From the IMG/VR virus record IMGVR_UViG_3300028591_000006, positions 1 to 64,000 of that record: a DNA stretch of 64,000 bases; one strand, written 5' to 3'. Below, piece by piece: positions 2,975 to 20,964 of the stretch; position 1 is the first letter of the stretch; every line of letters starts with the position of its first letter. This DNA comes from a virus (lineage: Duplodnaviria > Heunggongvirae > Uroviricota > Caudoviricetes). The position numbers and the translations under genes are program-made. The notes under the pieces are model-generated. The model worked only from the letters and a program-made list of their open reading frames with translations, searched no databases and had not been told where the DNA came from.

Positions 2975-4306
2975 TTATATCCAAAGTGCTCCACGAAGAT
3001 TCTCTCTGCTGCGGAACTCAAGTTTAGCACCGTCCTGTTTGAATCCGTCCTGTTCAAATACAATGAAGTATTTCGTATTATAGATTGCTACCAGGATTGC
3101 AACATGACCATATTTATTTGTCTTGGAAGAATCCCAAATAAGGATATCTCCCTTGTCGTAATCTGCGGTAGGACTATCAACAGTCTTTTTGAGATTGGTA
3201 CACTTATCAAAAATATCCTTAGCTCCACCTTCTGCTCCTAATGCAGGGAATTGGTCTACACCAAGTACATCATGCACATACTGTCTCGCCAGGTCTACAC
3301 AATTATGAACCTTATAGTTATTACAAATATAAGTATGTGTATTGTCAGTTTCGAAATTATAAACCTCAGCTTTGAAAGTCTCGCTTATTTTCACCCTTTT
3401 GTTCATACGTTTTGTAGATTTACAAAGAGACAATCTATAAATTGGTTTTACAGATTTCACTTGTTTACCTCGAATAAAAATAGGTTCCGAACTTCTTTTC
3501 GAGATACGAATAGATTTATTTACATAACCCAACTTGATAGCAATTGCCTGTAAGCTATAAATTAAAGAAGGACTCGTGTTCATTAGTACAATCGTATTTC
3601 CTTTTTTATATCCATCAGCCTCAATAAACCCGTTAAGAATCAACTCAGATTCTCGATTACTAAAAATTAGAGGTAATTTTTTATATTCTCCTCGACATTG
3701 TTCGAGAATGATTTTAGTAAGCAAGGGATGCTCACGTTTAGAAATTGCTCCAACAAAAGCATGTTCAGATTCATGATGTGGTCTTTCAGAAGAGAGCATG
3801 TTGAGAGAATGTACAAAATCAACTTTCTTTTCTCCAAAAGTTAATCTTATTTCATCTGTTTTATTATCTTTATGTCTACCAATATTTCCATCTCCTAACC
3901 AGAATCCTAAAAATAAAAGTTCATTATCAGTAAGACCTGTCTCATCAAAACACTCCTTATCATAAAGAGATGCTAGTTTTGTTTTCAATTCTACTGCCGG
4001 AGAAAATGTTCCATCTTTGAAATAGAATGGGTGGTCAGGAGTTACGCAAAAATCACAAAGAGGTGTTCTAATGTTTACAACCTCTTTAATACTCTTGAAT
4101 GTTTTAGTAACTGTATTAACTTCATTATCATATCCGATTACTTTATCTCCAACAACAATATCCTGAATTGGTTTATAAGTCCAGTCAGCCATAAGAATCA
4201 TATGGTTTTTAGTGAAACACTGAAAACTCTTGTCACCTTTGAATACATCATCTTTATAATCAACCTTTTTACCTTTGTAAGTTTTAATAAACTCAGTTAG
4301 ATTCAT
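2975..4306 (-). CDS. CHAP-domain peptidoglycan hydrolase (endolysin-like) interrupted by a HINT+LAGLIDADG intein
   Basis: The extein is about 137 aa: MNLTEF...GDKSFQ | CVDLARQYVHDV...GHVAILVAIYN, which matches CHAP motifs Q-C-V-D and a downstream His. The intein spans residues 30-335: CFTKNHMILMAD...VGDKV (block A), CVTPDHPF (block B), LLFLGFWLGDGN and ELILNGFIEADGY (two LAGLIDADG motifs), and it ends ...YKVHN|C. Confidence 0.8.
   Translation of the reverse strand: MNLTEFIKTYKGKKVDYKDDVFKGDKSFQCFTKNHMILMADWTYKPIQDIVVGDKVIGYDNEVNTVTKTFKSIKEVVNIRTPLCDFCVTPDHPFYFKDGTFSPAVELKTKLASLYDKECFDETGLTDNELLFLGFWLGDGNIGRHKDNKTDEIRLTFGEKKVDFVHSLNMLSSERPHHESEHAFVGAISKREHPLLTKIILEQCRGEYKKLPLIFSNRESELILNGFIEADGYKKGNTIVLMNTSPSLIYSLQAIAIKLGYVNKSIRISKRSSEPIFIRGKQVKSVKPIYRLSLCKSTKRMNKRVKISETFKAEVYNFETDNTHTYICNNYKVHNCVDLARQYVHDVLGVDQFPALGAEGGAKDIFDKCTNLKKTVDSPTADYDKGDILIWDSSKTNKYGHVAILVAIYNTKYFIVFEQDGFKQDGAKLEFRSRENLRGALWI
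3302..4219 (-). mobile_element. intein (HINT splicing domain plus LAGLIDADG homing endonuclease) at the catalytic Cys of the CHAP domain
   Basis: Begins with Cys (TGT at 4219-4217) and ends HN (3307-3302), followed by the +1 Cys (3301-3299), which is the CHAP active-site Cys. Confidence 0.75.
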
Positions 4307-9956: not shown

Positions 9957-9968
9957 AACTGACAGGAC

Positions 9969-10045
9969 AAAAAAAACCCTACAGTATAGTTTAGGAGTAA
10001 TACTGTAGGGTTGCAAATTATGAATCATGAAATTATTCATTTGTT
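9969..10045 (-). ncRNA. candidate small RNA 1 (about 77 nt): promoter c, then hairpin, then U-tract
   Basis: A -10 box (TATAAT, 10058-10063 on the minus strand) lies upstream. The 13-bp perfect hairpin aaccctacagtat/atactgtagggtt (9975-10012) has minus-strand loop UACUCCUAAACU and is followed by U8 (plus-strand A-run 9969-9976). Confidence 0.45.
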
Positions 10046-10051
10046 TCTAAC

Positions 10052-10079
10052 TTAATTATAGAAACTCTGATTTTCTCAG
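10052..10079 (-). promoter_or_regulatory. phage promoter c (CTGAGAAA-N-TTCTATAATTAA)
   Basis: Full bipartite motif; 13 nt between CTGAGA and TATAAT. Confidence 0.55.
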
Positions 10080-10164
10080 AAAAAAAGAAGGGTTATCTGA
10101 CCGGGTGGGAGGGAAAAGGTCAGATAACCCAAAACCTTCAGGAGGTGCCAAAATGTCAAGGCAT
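10080..10164 (-). ncRNA. candidate small RNA 2 (about 85 nt): promoter d, then single-stranded CACCUCCU, then 13-bp hairpin, then U-tract
   Basis: Promoter motif at 10171-10198. The minus-strand transcript contains GGCACCUCCUGAAGG (10149-10135). The hairpin gggttatctgacc/ggtcagataaccc (10090-10130) is followed by U7 (plus-strand A-run 10080-10086). Confidence 0.45.
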
Positions 10165-10170
10165 CATAAT

Positions 10171-10198
10171 TTAATTATAGAAAGGAATGTATTCTCAG
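10171..10198 (-). promoter_or_regulatory. phage promoter d (CTGAGAAT-N-TTCTATAATTAA)
   Basis: Full bipartite motif. Confidence 0.55.
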
Positions 10199-10203
10199 TC
10201 AAT

Positions 10204-10260
10204 AAAAAAGACCCTACAGTATGTAGGAGTATACCATAGGGTCAAAGAGTTTATAATGAC
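10204..10260 (-). ncRNA. candidate small RNA 3 (about 57 nt): promoter e, then hairpin, then U-tract; paralog of sRNA 1
   Basis: Promoter motif at 10267-10301. The hairpin gaccctacagtat/ataccatagggtc (10210-10243, two internal mismatches) has minus-strand loop ACUCCUAC and is followed by U6. Confidence 0.4.
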
Positions 10261-10266
10261 TAGTAT

Positions 10267-10301
10267 CTTAATAATAGAATGTGCCTTTATTTCGCTCTCA
10301 G
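10267..10301 (-). promoter_or_regulatory. phage promoter e (variant: CTGAGAGC...TTCTATTATTAAG)
   Basis: Variant of the motif, immediately downstream of the terL stop. Confidence 0.4.
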
Positions 10302-17574: not shown

Positions 17575-17660
17575 AAATCTTTTCTCCTTGGCATATGCCG
17601 ATATTGATTTGTTTATTATTTCACCTGACAGTTGACAACGCTGTCAGGATTTTGGCTATA

Positions 17661-17690
17661 TAATAATTATAGAAACTAAAAAATTCTCAG
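17661..17690 (-). promoter_or_regulatory. phage promoter upstream of the gp32-like SSB gene
   Basis: CTGAGAAT-13-TATAAT. Confidence 0.55.
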
Positions 17691-17693
17691 ATT

Positions 17694-18164
17694 TTAACGT
17701 TCCGGAACTCTGTTCATAGAATTACGCAGATAATCTGAAGATGTTTCATTATTCAAATCTTTAGTTGGTTTTGCTACGTTATCAACATAAGCACCATTAC
17801 AGCGAAGTCTTACAAGGTTATCCAATTCAGATTTTTTAATCTCAAGAGCCTTTACACCAACACTGATACGGTCAAAGGTTGCTGTAGCATCACGAAGTTC
17901 TTTCATTGCTTTTACAACATCAGAGTCACACTGAACCATTGATTTAATAATGTCTTCAGTAACTTTCTTGCCTTCATTAGCACAGTGTTCACGAATAGCG
18001 ATATTACGCTCAGCCTGGATTACTTTAAGCATATCTGTTTTCTCAGATACTAAACCCTTAGCCTCTCGTGCCATATCTGCATAATTATAATAAGTGCTAC
18101 TCATTGTAATACATTCAGCTTCAAGATTATACTGGTCTACTTCTACATCTGATTTAATATCCAT
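17694..18164 (-). CDS. UvsY-like recombination mediator (tentative)
   Basis: About 150 aa. YNLEAECITMSSTYYNY and DMLKVIQAERN resemble the T4 UvsY N-terminal blocks. Located next to the SSB and UvsX genes. Confidence 0.3.
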   Translation of the reverse strand: MDIKSDVEVDQYNLEAECITMSSTYYNYADMAREAKGLVSEKTDMLKVIQAERNIAIREHCANEGKKVTEDIIKSMVQCDSDVVKAMKELRDATATFDRISVGVKALEIKKSELDNLVRLRCNGAYVDNVAKPTKDLNNETSSDYLRNSMNRVPER

Positions 18165-18179
18165 TATTTACCTCGTAAT

Positions 18180-18191
18180 TTAATTATAGAA
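18180..18191 (-). promoter_or_regulatory. phage promoter (-10 motif) upstream of the UvsY-like gene
   Basis: TTCTATAATTAA followed by SD gaggt and the ATG. Confidence 0.45.
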
Positions 18192-18196
18192 ATATA

Positions 18197-19130
18197 TTAT
18201 TTTTCAAAAATTTCATTGTAAATACTGTTACTCACATAATTACCATTTATTCTCCCATCACGCTTATACTTTTCAGTAGATAGATACCGTTTCTTAAACA
18301 CAGAAGACTCGTAACAATTTATAGGGTTTATACAATTTATATCAGGATTTATTCCCGGAAGAATCCAATCTTCAACTTCTTCTTTCTTCAGGATAATATT
18401 TCCATTTGTATATTCAGGCAGTTCTACAGACCTCTTCAAAGAATATGTAATCATTTCATCTGTCAGTTTAGACTTCGCATAATCATCTTTTATATGTTTC
18501 AATAGAGCAATGTCATTGGATACTATAGTTCCATTATCTCCGGAGAAACAATCTATACCAAGCAGACGCAGAACGATTCTATCTGATTCATTTAGAGTTG
18601 CTTTCAGATGATATTTCTTATTAATGCAATAGAATTGTTTCCGCAGCATACCTTCAAGATAATATTCAAGGTTGCGTTCAGTTAAATCTTCTTTATCAAG
18701 TTCTTCAAGTTTATGACGGATTATATTCAGATTTATTCCATTTTCTGTCAATGTAATATTGCCCGTCTCACCAAACAAACGAATAAACTTAGTATACCAG
18801 TAGGTTATCGTGTCGTAGCCTGCAAAAGGTATATGAGTTATAGAAGGGTCAAAGTCTTCCTTGAAGTATCCCCTTATTGCAAGTTCATCTTTATACTCAG
18901 TTGTCTGTCTGATTACCGGATAATGATTTACAGATATTTCACGTTTATGTGTGGCAACAGCTTTCTCAAAAATAGTTGTAGGTAATGTATCAAAAGAACA
19001 TTTAAGACAAATTCCTTTTATAGGTTTTGGAGATATCTTCCATTCACCCAGGGAATATACTTCCATACCTTCTTTTATTTCTTCAATGGGAATCTGACCT
19101 TGTTTTGTTGTAATCAATCTGTATTGCATA
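18197..19130 (-). CDS. free-standing intein-derived homing endonuclease (HINT + degenerate LAGLIDADG), lacking splicing residues
   Basis: YRLITTKQGQIPIEEIKEGMEVYS resembles intein block A but without Cys1. SVNHYPV resembles block B. LRLLGIDCFSGDNG resembles a LAGLIDADG motif. The C-terminus INGNYVSNS is a degenerate block G. The track ORF's N-terminal 48 aa translate a structured leader. Confidence 0.5.
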
Positions 19131-19330
19131 AGAAAAAGAATGAGAGCCGGAATAATCGTAAGAGTTGCATTATTTATTTCCGGCTCTCTGGAGCAAATAT
19201 GATAACAAAATATGTTAGCACATTTATAGATACAGAGGAGAGTTGCACTCCTAATTAAAGGGTTAATCCCCACCGGACCGATTTAAGTTACCGTTTAGAG
19301 GGACTGACATTTTACAACCGTTCACCTCCC
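19131..19330 (-). promoter_or_regulatory. structured 5' leader (about 200 nt) of the intein-derived homing endonuclease gene
   Basis: Contains an 11-bp perfect stem gagagccggaa/ttccggctctc (19142-19190) and other helices. The track ORF translates it as a nonsense N-terminus. Confidence 0.4.
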
Positions 19331-19363
19331 GTATTTACTATTCTACGCACTGTATCATCTATT

Positions 19364-19390
19364 TTAATTATAGAATATAAACAATTCTCA
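19364..19390 (-). promoter_or_regulatory. phage promoter (TTGAGAAT-13-TATAAT) driving the structured leader and the HINT-LAGLIDADG gene
   Basis: Full motif with T at position 1 of the upstream box. Confidence 0.5.
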
Positions 19391-19407
19391 AATTACATGT
19401 TATAAGA

Positions 19408-20313
19408 TTATTTATAAGATTTTCGTTGATAGCAAGTATTATAAAAATCAGGAAAATGTTGTCTAATATATTTCCCAGCTTTATTTTCAGCAATGCCAAA
19501 AAGTATTGATATTTCTTTAACCCAACCAAATTTAGAAAAATCTATATTAGAATTCTGTATAATATTCCAACGCTCATTTTCTAAAGATTTATCAATATAA
19601 GATATATGTTTTCTTGATTTCTTTAATTTCAAAGAATTTTCCAATTCTACCCAATATGAAACATCGGTATTATCTCTATTTGGAATAGAACTATATCCTA
19701 AATCAGACAACATAAAATTTTTACACTCTTCTTCAGATTCTATCCATTTAACAAAGGGATAATGTTCTTTAATGTAAACATCTTTATTATCTGAATTTTG
19801 ATGTTCCGAAATATATTTAGATTTTACTTCTATGAAACAATGATATGTTTCAACATAAAAATCAGGGAAATATCCATGTTCATTACCTTTTGAATCTAAA
19901 TAAGGAATTCTTATTAAAGGTTGATACCACTTAACACCAAGTTCATCCAAACGTTTAGCTACAATAAGTTCCCATTGCGAATCTAATTTTATTAACCCTG
20001 CTATTTTACTTTCATAAATTATTGGATTCTTACTGCGATATTTCCAAAAAGTATTATACTTAGTTCTTTCAGATGCTCTCTTACGAGATTCAGGTTTATT
20101 AAACCATGCGTTCTTTTGAATCTCAGATACTTGTTTAGATTTTTCAGGAGTCCATTCTCTTTTACGAGTATCCGCAGAACGCTGATAACATTGCATACTC
20201 CAAGATTTGCAAATATCACATTCTTTTCTATGAGCAAATAATTCTCTTCTAGTTCTAAATATTATATTACATTGTGATTTCCATGTACCATACGGTGAGG
20301 TTATAGTATTCAT
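19408..20313 (-). CDS. PD-(D/E)xK-family nuclease with an N-terminal zinc finger
   Basis: HRKECDICKSW zinc motif; GYFPDFYVETYHCFIEVKSKY has a PD...E-x-K arrangement. Confidence 0.45.
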   Translation of the reverse strand: MNTITSPYGTWKSQCNIIFRTRRELFAHRKECDICKSWSMQCYQRSADTRKREWTPEKSKQVSEIQKNAWFNKPESRKRASERTKYNTFWKYRSKNPIIYESKIAGLIKLDSQWELIVAKRLDELGVKWYQPLIRIPYLDSKGNEHGYFPDFYVETYHCFIEVKSKYISEHQNSDNKDVYIKEHYPFVKWIESEEECKNFMLSDLGYSSIPNRDNTDVSYWVELENSLKLKKSRKHISYIDKSLENERWNIIQNSNIDFSKFGWVKEISILFGIAENKAGKYIRQHFPDFYNTCYQRKSYK

Positions 20314-20335
20314 AAGAACTCCTAATTATAAATTA

Positions 20336-20424
20336 CTCGGTGGGCAGGATTCGAACCTACACAATTCATGTATGAATCACCAGAATCAAAATCTGGGGAG
20401 ATACCAATTACTCTTTACCACCGA
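20336..20424 (-). tRNA. tRNA, anticodon UUG (Gln-type), with an unusually long (about 19 nt) variable arm; 89 nt
   Basis: Acceptor stem TCGGTGG/CCACCGA. Anticodon arm CCAGA-UUUUGAU-UCUGG, with the anticodon at plus positions 20387-20389. T-arm GTAGG-TTCGAAT-CCTGC. CCA is not encoded. Confidence 0.6.
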
Positions 20425-20498
20425 AAGATATATAATATATAAATATTAGAACCTTATTAAAAGCCGTTGGCTTACCGCTTGCCGACGACCCACTATAC

Positions 20499-20528
20499 TT
20501 ATAATTATAGAAAAATCCTAATTCTCAG
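20499..20528 (-). promoter_or_regulatory. phage promoter upstream of the tRNA
   Basis: CTGAGAAT-13-TATAAT. Confidence 0.55.
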
Positions 20529-20964
20529 ATTCTTCCTTGTTATTGACTTCATTCACCTGCTGAAAAATAGATGTTGTTCCATTCATCACCTTATCAGCAA
20601 CACCTTGTTTTTCAAAATATTCAAGCAAAGCACTGTTATCTTCACCCTTGCCTTTCTTTGGTTCAAGAGCTTTAATCATAACTTCACCACGAAGAAGGGT
20701 TTCAATAAGTTTACGCTTACTTTCATTAACATCTGCCTTAGCCTTGCTCAATGTCTTTACAGCTGCAACAAGCTGTTCAGGGTCAAGAGCAAGAGAACCA
20801 TCATCAAGAATACGATACAGTTCATCAAGAGCCTTGTCTGTTGTCTTAGCCAGTTTATCTTCGTAATCTTTTACAGATTTAGAATTGATGAAATCAAACT
20901 GTTCTCTCAGCATAGGTAAAATCTCTGAGAGTTTATCATTGTTCGTTATCTGTTTCTCCGCCAT
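20518..20964 (-). CDS. hypothetical protein (148 aa)
   Basis: Minus-strand ORF. Confidence 0.45.
   Translation of the reverse strand: MAEKQITNNDKLSEILPMLREQFDFINSKSVKDYEDKLAKTTDKALDELYRILDDGSLALDPEQLVAAVKTLSKAKADVNESKRKLIETLLRGEVMIKALEPKKGKGEDNSALLEYFEKQGVADKVMNGTTSIFQQVNEVNNKEESEN

Follow-up and report, generated by a model that had tools for sequence, protein, structure and literature searches.

A predicted free-standing HINT-LAGLIDADG protein of intein type, fixed in one clade of T4-like phages

The 64,000-nucleotide (nt) stretch of viral DNA analysed here (IMG/VR record IMGVR_UViG_3300028591_000006, positions 1 to 64,000; the window) contains, on its minus strand, a gene whose 310-residue product is, according to its predicted structure, a free-standing, intein-derived HINT domain that encloses a LAGLIDADG domain and lacks both exteins and a splicing nucleophile. 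The gene is fixed and vertically inherited in one clade of T4-like gut or rumen phages, and we are highly confident of the architecture and the fixation, taken jointly. We lean towards reading the gene as a domesticated intein derivative that would act as a non-cleaving, nucleic-acid-binding factor rather than as a homing nuclease. Loci of relatives are designated by numbers with the prefix L and database proteins by numbers with the prefix P, and the coordinates of the features are collected in Table 1.

Architecture of the protein

The open reading frame (ORF) called in the window (18197..19273, minus strand) has 358 codons for amino acids (aa) from a GTG start. Homologues were sought among 5.8 billion proteins; the 59 clusters obtained (~270-330 aa) match only the last ~86% of this ORF, and the homologues all start at the methionine equivalent to position 19129, with the N-terminal pattern M-[QRK]-Y-x-L-[VI]-T-T. 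In L134, a relative with 95% identity, a run of T within the 48-codon extension differs in length by 4 nt (5 vs 9 T in L134), and the database gene calls for P0001 and P0002 carry differing spurious N-termini over the same upstream stretch. The extension is non-coding, because the indel in L134 shifts the frame and the artificial N-termini supplied by the gene callers disagree. An earlier reading of the window, made from the letters alone (the sequence-only reading), had suspected that the ORF caller over-extended the N-terminus; the related genomes bear this out.

Comparison of the ORF with Pfam, PHROGs, NCBIfam and PADLOC gave no match, nor did megablast and tblastn searches of GenBank phages. 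A Pfam scan of 38 aligned family members returned just two matches to Hint_2 (E≈0.1) and none to WhiA, and the family profile retrieved nothing from all PDB sequences at E<=10, PI-SceI included. An exhaustive hidden Markov model search of 1.84 billion cluster representatives recovered only 29 proteins, which are free-standing and of 68-329 aa, apart from one 906-aa outsider with PT-HINT/Hint_2 repeats. This multi-Hint protein was matched over the N-terminal HINT block (E 4e-4) and provides the sole link to HINT at the sequence level.

An AlphaFold2 model built from the 38-sequence alignment has a mean predicted local distance difference test score (pLDDT) of 87.8 and a predicted TM-score (pTM) of 0.86, with low confidence only at residues ~271-300. 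The modelled chain consists of HINT-N (residues ~1-75), a LAGLIDADG-type domain (~83-233), HINT-C (~236-270) and a variable tail (271-310), and displays both a HINT fold and the alpha-beta-beta-alpha-beta-beta-alpha fold of LAGLIDADG proteins with its two packed helices. The first LAGLIDADG half-domain appears truncated in the model, with two strands only after helix 1, and no helix-turn-helix is predicted in the protein. In a Foldseek search of the PDB, three VMA inteins that contain homing endonuclease domains rank first, with E-values from 1e-6 (7qsu) to 9e-5, and the WhiA structures 3hyi, 3hyj and 8dy9 are among the top structural matches. The top matches in the BFVD viral structure library, bar one, are inteins inside phage proteins of 520-1400 aa, whose hosts are helicases, ribonucleotide reductase, terminases, polymerases and RecA. 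The HINT and LAGLIDADG homology proposed in the sequence-only reading is thus upheld at the level of fold and finds no counterpart in sequence-profile searches beyond the weak multi-Hint match. The best overall structural match is to the inteins TliVMA (7qsu), PI-PfuI (1dq3) and PI-SceI (1jva), which have the same nesting of a LAGLIDADG domain between HINT-N and HINT-C; in contrast to such canonical inteins, the phage protein lacks exteins, a nucleophile at residue 1, a terminal His-Asn and LAGLIDADG motifs of the DG type.

Exteins are absent in that the ORF has its own start and the upstream gene is in another frame or 0.2-1.4 kb away. The missing Cys1, remarked upon in the window alone, is a property of the family: none of the N-termini of the aligned homologues carries a Cys, Ser or Thr nucleophile at residue 1, which leaves intein block A without its defining residue, and the chain presumably starts about two residues past the Cys1 position of block A in mini-inteins. 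A block-B-like S66-x-x-H69 (Ser in 26 and His in 34 of the 38 members) lies in the last predicted strand of HINT-N. HINT-C ends near an invariant N265 in PGINPDIN|C, where the penultimate residue is Ile or Val, not His, and the following residue is Cys in 17, Thr in 10, Gly in 10 and Ser in one of the 38 members; several members stop a few residues further on. Judged from the alignment, N265|C/T looks like the ghost of a C-terminal Asn|Cys junction. A degenerate HINT C-terminus had instead been placed at ...NGNYVSNS, a stretch that belongs to the variable, low-confidence 45-aa tail (266-310) past the HINT domain; this tail contains no CxxC repeats.

The invariant N265 closes the part of HINT-C that is modelled with confidence and is followed by Cys, Thr or Ser in 28/38 members. 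It could therefore also belong to a true but unusual intein, or to what is left of one, whose host gene was split, with the 148-aa protein encoded upstream as N-extein, the 45-aa tail as C-extein and a possible release by Asn cyclisation. The 148-aa gene and the ORF are indeed always adjacent and overlap in distant relatives; however, they are in different frames, residue 1 of the would-be intein is never Cys, Ser, Thr or Ala, the penultimate His is missing, Gly occupies position +1 in 10/38 members, and several members stop shortly after N265. Moreover, all 66 of 66 homologues of the 148-aa protein measure 86-155 aa and show no tail-like extension. Because this family never exceeds 155 aa, the idea of a split host gene is without support, and we consider it highly improbable.

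A canonical LAGLIDADG intein is present elsewhere in the window, where it splits a CHAP-domain endolysin gene (2975-4306, minus strand); it starts with Cys1 (CFTKNH...), ends in VHN|C and has the motifs LLFLGFWLGDGN and LILNGFIEADG. An intein in a lysis gene is unusual, and the sequence of this one is unrelated to that of the free-standing protein. The family was compared by hhalign with this intein and with a 17-member alignment of the intein's own family. Both runs align one segment only, LEYYLEGMLRKQF with (L/E)LILNGFIEADG, at probabilities of only 0.3% and 3%, which speaks against the common origin with the 3302-4219 intein that had been envisaged. Through this alignment, the invariant G160 therefore corresponds to the Gly of 'LAG', and the catalytic Asp falls opposite position 165, which is Arg in 8, Ser in 8, Thr in 7, Gly in 4 and Gln in 3 members. 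The AlphaFold2 model, in which helix 2 ends at 164 and the next strand begins at 167, agrees with this assignment. At the end of helix 1 (105-119), position 120 is Gly (16), Asp (12) or Asn (7), position 121 is Glu (10), Gln (7) or Cys (5), also Arg or Lys, and position 122 is Pro (14), Thr (9) or Val (9). Neither helix end thus shows a conserved Asp or Glu in an acid-then-Gly arrangement, and other invariant residues lie elsewhere (N153, E155, E159, H212, D215 and K219). Judged by these alignments, the protein is most likely non-catalytic, and the non-conservation of acids at the two LAGLIDADG catalytic positions argues against the HO-like homing endonuclease that the sequence-only reading had in mind.

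Fixation of the gene in the clade

In L001-4, L007/8, L134-141 and L146-150, the gene directly follows a homologue of the 148-aa gene. Genes for UvsY-like, gp32-like and UvsX proteins lie downstream in the window and in most close relatives (L141 differs). L009-L013 (46-52% identity) have other downstream genes, yet the ORF still follows and overlaps the 148-aa gene. As a control for circularity, two loci on 144-kb contigs were entered through distant homologues (47-50% identity) of the 148-aa protein; the gene that follows and overlaps was again a member of the family (hmmsearch E 1e-138 and 1e-144). No empty site between the 148-aa gene and its next gene was found in the relatives examined, in every one of which the gene occupies the same locus, and presence/absence polymorphism of the kind expected for a mobile gene is lacking.

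The ratio of non-synonymous to synonymous substitution rates (dN/dS) is 0.059 between the window and L134 (dS 0.44) and 0.07-0.10 for pairs at ~75-80% identity, the highest value being 0.26. Fifteen columns are invariant across 33-95% identity, and none of the 59 clusters has a broken reading frame. The constant locus and the low dN/dS, a mark of strong purifying selection, are those of a fixed gene with a phage function, neither a homing element nor a pseudogene, and the earlier suggestion of a mobile homing element finds no support. A decaying, non-functional remnant of such an element would also have lost its splicing residues and canonical nuclease residues, as this protein has; an open frame in 59/59 clusters, dN/dS values of 0.06-0.26 with saturated dS, and the 15 invariant columns nevertheless make a remnant scarcely credible.

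The contigs of the clade carry conflicting labels of metagenome-assembled genomes at NCBI (Methanobrevibacter sp. vs Eubacterium sp.; P0005, P0093). RecA of bacterial type, promoters with TATAAT and ribosome-binding sites with GGAG all point to a bacterium as host, and the archaeal label is therefore probably a binning artefact.

The hairpin module and the tRNA cassette upstream

The 200-nt structured leader described in the sequence-only reading consists of two unlike parts. Its proximal ~100 nt are conserved with the gene and comprise, in order, a small hairpin, a single-stranded motif, a large hairpin and a T-run. The distal 129 nt are the 3' end of a mobile cassette, and do not belong to the leader: the closest cassette-free relatives have an ordinary tRNA-Gln in that position.

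The large hairpin contains an exact 11-nt inverted repeat (19142-19152 / 19178-19188). The 115 nt from 19118 to 19232, which fold into the small hairpin (19226-19194) and the large one, are far more stable than expected (z = -5.26, with 0/200 shuffles as good), and the minimum free energy of 19199-19127, from TTGCTCC to ATG, is -19.5 kcal/mol. Ten leaders from relatives at 55-95% protein identity were compared. They contain seven different stem sequences, each of which is perfectly paired: GAGAGCCGGAA, GTCCGACAGAAT, GTCCGTCAGAA, AGAGAGGTGGAA, GTCTACCGGAAC, AAGAGATGAGAT and GGGCTGAAAGA. In an alignment of seven sequences, 10/10 pairs of the large stem are 100% paired, and six of them are changed on both sides. 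All ten leaders have at least five T within 10 nt after the stem, followed by ATG at 3-19 nt with no Shine-Dalgarno sequence, and 19142-19188 combines a stable, G+C-containing stem with an immediate U-rich tract in the manner of an intrinsic terminator. The 11-bp perfect helix, first noticed in the window alone, is real and selected.

Directly 5' of this hairpin stands the motif ATATTTGCTCC, that is, TTGCTCC after ATAT or ATAA, which is invariant in 10/10 leaders despite the changes in the stem. The same succession of motif, hairpin and T-run recurs behind the UvsX gene (14802-14763) and at 58858-58814, and a reduced version lies at 10026-9975, with the motif at 14802-14790, 58858-58845 and ~10026-10013 ahead of these terminator-like hairpins; it also occurs at the homologous UvsX-distal sites of L001 (11645-11700) and L008 (4855-4905). 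Its general form is CATAWTTT(T)GCTC(C), and the motif stays constant as the stems vary. This recurrence therefore marks a module that these phages reuse at gene ends, most simply interpreted, from its sequence, as an intrinsic terminator with an upstream motif. The motif itself may be a -10-like element, a boxA-like UGCUC or an RNase site.

At the place of the small hairpin, L141 has a different 5-bp stem, CATAC/GTATG (by eye). Distant relatives, in which the ORF and the upstream gene overlap, lack a leader altogether. Neither a promoter-like motif nor a Shine-Dalgarno sequence is found between hairpin and ATG, whereas the neighbouring genes have GGAG or GAGG. Three other interpretations of this region were tried and rejected. 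An antisense small ORF behind the plus-strand GGAG...ATG of the motif is not conserved (by eye, L136 has TAA after the ATG and L141 has no ATG), an antiterminator pairing of GCUC with GAGC in the window is not conserved in L001 (by eye), and a Bacteroidetes-type -7/-33 promoter in the box has the wrong spacing, the genome using TATAAT and GGAG. A scan of IMG/VR with the 14-mer CATATTTGCTCCAG gave chance matches only. On the minus strand at 9960-10280, three to four tiny units each consist of the promoter TTCTATAATTA and, after 50-90 nt, a strong hairpin with T-run; they contain no ORF and have no Rfam match, and may be small RNA genes or promoter/terminator decoys.

Table 1. Features of the locus, listed from the gene towards its upstream neighbour.
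Feature	Coordinates	Strand	Remarks
HINT-LAGLIDADG ORF	18197..19129	-	310 aa, MQYRL...IFEK; stop codon included
U-rich tract AUUCUUUUUCUU	19130..19141	-	between hairpin and AUG; no Shine-Dalgarno; T-run in 10/10 leaders
Terminator-like hairpin	19142..19188	-	11-bp perfect outer stem GAGAGCCGGAA / TTCCGGCUCUC, 5 more predicted pairs, 12-nt loop
Invariant single-stranded motif CAUAUUUGCUCCA	19189..19201	-	directly 5' of hairpin
Small upstream hairpin AUAAAUGUGCUAACAUAUUUUGUUAUCAUAUUU	19194..19226	-	in the conserved box; 90.6% of cells paired in 7 sequences, no double changes
tRNA-shaped RNA X	19228..19356	-	129 nt; copies at L147 4248-4375 and L150 2488-2615
Promoter core TTCTATAATTA	19365..19375	-	TGAGAA 11-12 nt upstream; only plausible promoter for RNA X and ORF
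Putative PD-(D/E)xK (TnsA-N-like) endonuclease gene	19408..20313	-	Pfam Tn7_TnsA-like_N, E 4e-5; PHROG 22215, 15137, 9019
tRNA-Gln(UUG), long variable arm	20335..20425	-	91 nt; ARAGORN and Rfam tRNA, 35.7 bits
Surviving 5' half of resident 75-nt tRNA-Gln	20459..20492	-	up to anticodon loop; from L134 alignment
148-aa gene, upstream neighbour	20518..20964	-	precedes HINT-LAGLIDADG gene in all loci; overlaps it in distant relatives

The boundaries of the cassette follow from comparison with near-identical phages that lack it (L134, L146, L148 and L149), in which a consensus promoter and an intact 75-nt tRNA-Gln(UUG) occupy the space between the 148-aa gene and the conserved box. L134 1-181 aligns to window 20639-20459, and L134 221-1852 to 19227-17600. 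In the window, a 1,231-nt cassette (20458..19228) takes the place of the 39-nt 3' half of the tRNA (anticodon to 3' end); it contains, in order, 34 AT-rich nt, a 91-nt tRNA-Gln, a putative endonuclease gene, a second copy of the promoter and a tRNA-shaped RNA (RNA X). L150 carries the same cassette, and L147 carries it minus the tRNA and most of the endonuclease gene; relatives of this endonuclease were sought in IMG/VR and the JGI metagenomes, and none were found. The 91-nt tRNA-Gln is 78% identical to the tRNA-Gln of L001 (5819-5909). Its long, type-II-like variable arm is atypical for tRNA-Gln, and the slot is occupied in other relatives by ordinary alleles of 73-76 nt. The cassette looks like an endonuclease element that targets a tRNA gene and brings a replacement tRNA. 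Other selfish elements in the clade, which is rich in them, include a LAGLIDADG intein (...GLFDGDGCF...) in a UvsX/RecA-like gene of L136 (4094-4969) and an IS605-type TnpB gene beside UvsX in L001 (10287-11561).

The promoter core TTCTATAATTA has 13 exact copies on the coding strand, and 26 matches with at most one mismatch vs 6 expected; in L001 and L134, real tRNA genes lie at the same spacing from the motif. RNA X abuts the conserved box at the same nucleotide, and at the same distance from the promoter, as these real tRNAs of relatives. It has the helices of a cloverleaf: a 7-bp acceptor-like, a 4-bp D-like and a 5-bp T-like helix (loop UGCAACU) and a 5+2-bp anticodon-like stem, which closes a 23-nt segment with a GUAA (GNRA) mini-hairpin and not a 7-nt loop. 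The D-loop lacks GG and the T-loop is not the canonical UUCRANY, which sets RNA X apart from canonical tRNAs. Its three copies (~91% identity) keep 34/34 predicted pairs, with six compensatory double changes in five helices; in the controls, slid pairings gave 0-2, and shuffles 3/500. Alone, the upstream 129-136 nt fold no better than shuffles (z = -0.45). ARAGORN reports RNA X only at a relaxed setting (-ps80), as a tRNA with a 56-nt 'intron', and this call is no evidence by itself because the same setting gives 47 calls in the window.

Searches with RNA X itself gave no Rfam match at E<=10, and a covariance model run on 230 kb of relatives, together with patterns run on IMG/VR and JGI, found no further copies or chance matches only. 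The Rfam scan proposed for the leader likewise assigned it to no family: the whole window (at the gathering threshold) and 17600-20400 (at E<=10) returned tRNA-Gln only, with no match to a group I intron, riboswitch, tmRNA or Y-RNA-like family, and the result was the same in relatives. In other relatives, the slot holds other tRNA-Gln alleles, other RNAs, a 41-aa ORF or nothing. Further structured or tRNA-shaped sequences lie between promoter and box in L007 (3400-3650) and L008 (268-470); one of them has a canonical T-arm, GGTTCGACTCC, and a 7-bp terminal helix, and another shares GGTTGTAAA, a GNRA hairpin, with RNA X.

These comparisons also bear on whether the whole of 19130-19400 is one cis-regulatory, structured 5' untranslated region of the ORF, riboswitch-like or protein-binding. 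One promoter appears to drive the entire stretch, the 291-nt fold has z = -2.77, and compensatory changes occur in the distal tRNA-shaped part as well as in the proximal hairpins; yet the distal 129 nt are missing beside a 92%-identical ORF, with tRNA-Gln, other RNAs or nothing instead. The lack of a leader in distant relatives, the presence of motif, hairpin and T-run after unrelated genes as well, and the absence of a matching Rfam family add to the case against a single leader, which we regard as improbable.

Relation to known systems and likely role

Yeast HO and WHO ('weird HO') are stand-alone, intein-like proteins (Hint plus LAGLIDADG) that have no exteins, do not splice and have a degenerate C-terminal intein motif, and HO has been domesticated and has ceased to home (Coughlan et al. 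2020, PMC7282813). The phage family resembles them in its stand-alone HINT plus LAGLIDADG architecture without exteins. HO and WHO, however, have a C-terminal zinc finger, an active LAGLIDADG nuclease and a clear sequence relation to the VDE intein, whereas the phage proteins, encoded in bacteriophages, have no zinc finger, no detectable sequence similarity to inteins and no conserved catalytic acids. WhiA (DUF199), the product of a bacterial chromosomal gene, is a DNA-binding regulator with a degenerate double LAGLIDADG domain that has lost its catalytic activity. It has a C-terminal helix-turn-helix and no HINT; in contrast, both HINT halves surround the LAGLIDADG domain in the phage protein. 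By analogy, the evolutionary logic of the phage protein appears to be nearer that of WhiA than that of HO. It is a member of neither the HO/WHO nor the WhiA family, and lacks what defines an intein and a LAGLIDADG nuclease.

The leader, too, has a parallel. The expression of homing-endonuclease genes in T4 is held very low by RNA structure, and the phage locus resembles this attenuation, and intrinsic terminators, in having a G+C-rich stem and a U-run before a nuclease-type gene without a good site for ribosome binding. It differs from known terminators and from the T4 genes in its long loop (12-25 nt) and in the invariant ATATTTGCTCC before the stem.

A degenerate LAGLIDADG saddle, together with the DNA-recognition surface of HINT, would allow the protein to act as a sequence-specific nucleic-acid-binding factor in a WhiA-like manner, from a gene that sits in the early replication and recombination region. 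That it binds but does not cut seems to us only somewhat more probable than the opposite. Its expression would be kept low: the only consensus promoter lies ~230 nt upstream, and transcription would have to cross the small hairpin, the AUAUUUGCUCC motif, the 11-16-bp hairpin and the terminator-like U-run, with the AUG 3-19 nt further on. Because no promoter-like element lies between this module and the ATG and no Shine-Dalgarno sequence is present, the ORF would be expressed only by read-through and be poorly translated. A more specific role, in which the protein would regulate through the module of ATATTTGCTCC plus hairpin at its own gene and at other terminators, as an autoregulating termination/antitermination or RNA-processing factor, is quite improbable; if true, it would be the first viral case of an intein recruited to regulate genes.

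Several points weigh against a non-cleaving factor of intein descent that is expressed by read-through. There is no significant HINT or LAGLIDADG match in Pfam, PDB or profile-profile sequence searches, and the homology therefore comes mainly from predicted structure. The assignment of the catalytic positions depends on low-probability hhalign alignments and predicted secondary structure, not on a three-dimensional superposition, and the invariant E155, E159, H212, D215 and K219 could form a non-canonical active site. The region just upstream is a hot spot of cassette turnover, as might be expected beside an active nuclease gene. As to the terminator, the hairpin is not called by a consensus terminator scan and its loop is unusually long for an intrinsic terminator; in L008, a sequence that by eye resembles a separate terminator comes after the upstream tRNA, and the module is therefore not simply 'the tRNA terminator'.

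Some of these points would suit a still-active, free-standing, intein-type endonuclease (HO/WHO-like) with a non-canonical or relocated active site, cutting a specific site, for example in competing phages or in the hypervariable region just upstream. A complete LAGLIDADG-type domain is kept, but its first half-domain is apparently truncated. Asp occurs at position 120 in 12/38 members and Glu at 121 in 10/38, the window included, and the five residues just named are invariant, yet no acid is conserved at the positions aligned with the catalytic Asp/Glu. The upstream intergenic mosaic of tRNA, non-coding RNA and endonuclease cassettes in close relatives is at least partly due to a different endonuclease gene. 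Expression does appear tightly throttled, as is typical for phage nucleases; the gene, however, is never absent from its locus, and a dN/dS of 0.06-0.1 over its whole length is typical of a host-type function. We therefore consider an active endonuclease unlikely and prefer a domesticated protein that binds nucleic acid without cleaving it.

To our knowledge, domesticated inteins in the literature come from essentially one eukaryotic lineage, the HO and WHO of yeasts, and the degenerate LAGLIDADG proteins we know of in other roles (WhiA, maturases) have no HINT part. The protein described here is a new, sequence-orphan variant of the domesticated-intein theme, in a phage. At the same locus, an endonuclease cassette has, among near-identical genomes, destroyed a tRNA-Gln gene and delivered its own tRNA-Gln together with a new tRNA-shaped RNA. 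The family also cautions that annotation by sequence does not see such genes, their divergence having passed the reach of Pfam and PDB profiles. As a domesticated intein derivative, it would be a second, independent case of intein domestication, and would make it possible to test the contribution of the HINT scaffold in a protein that no longer splices.

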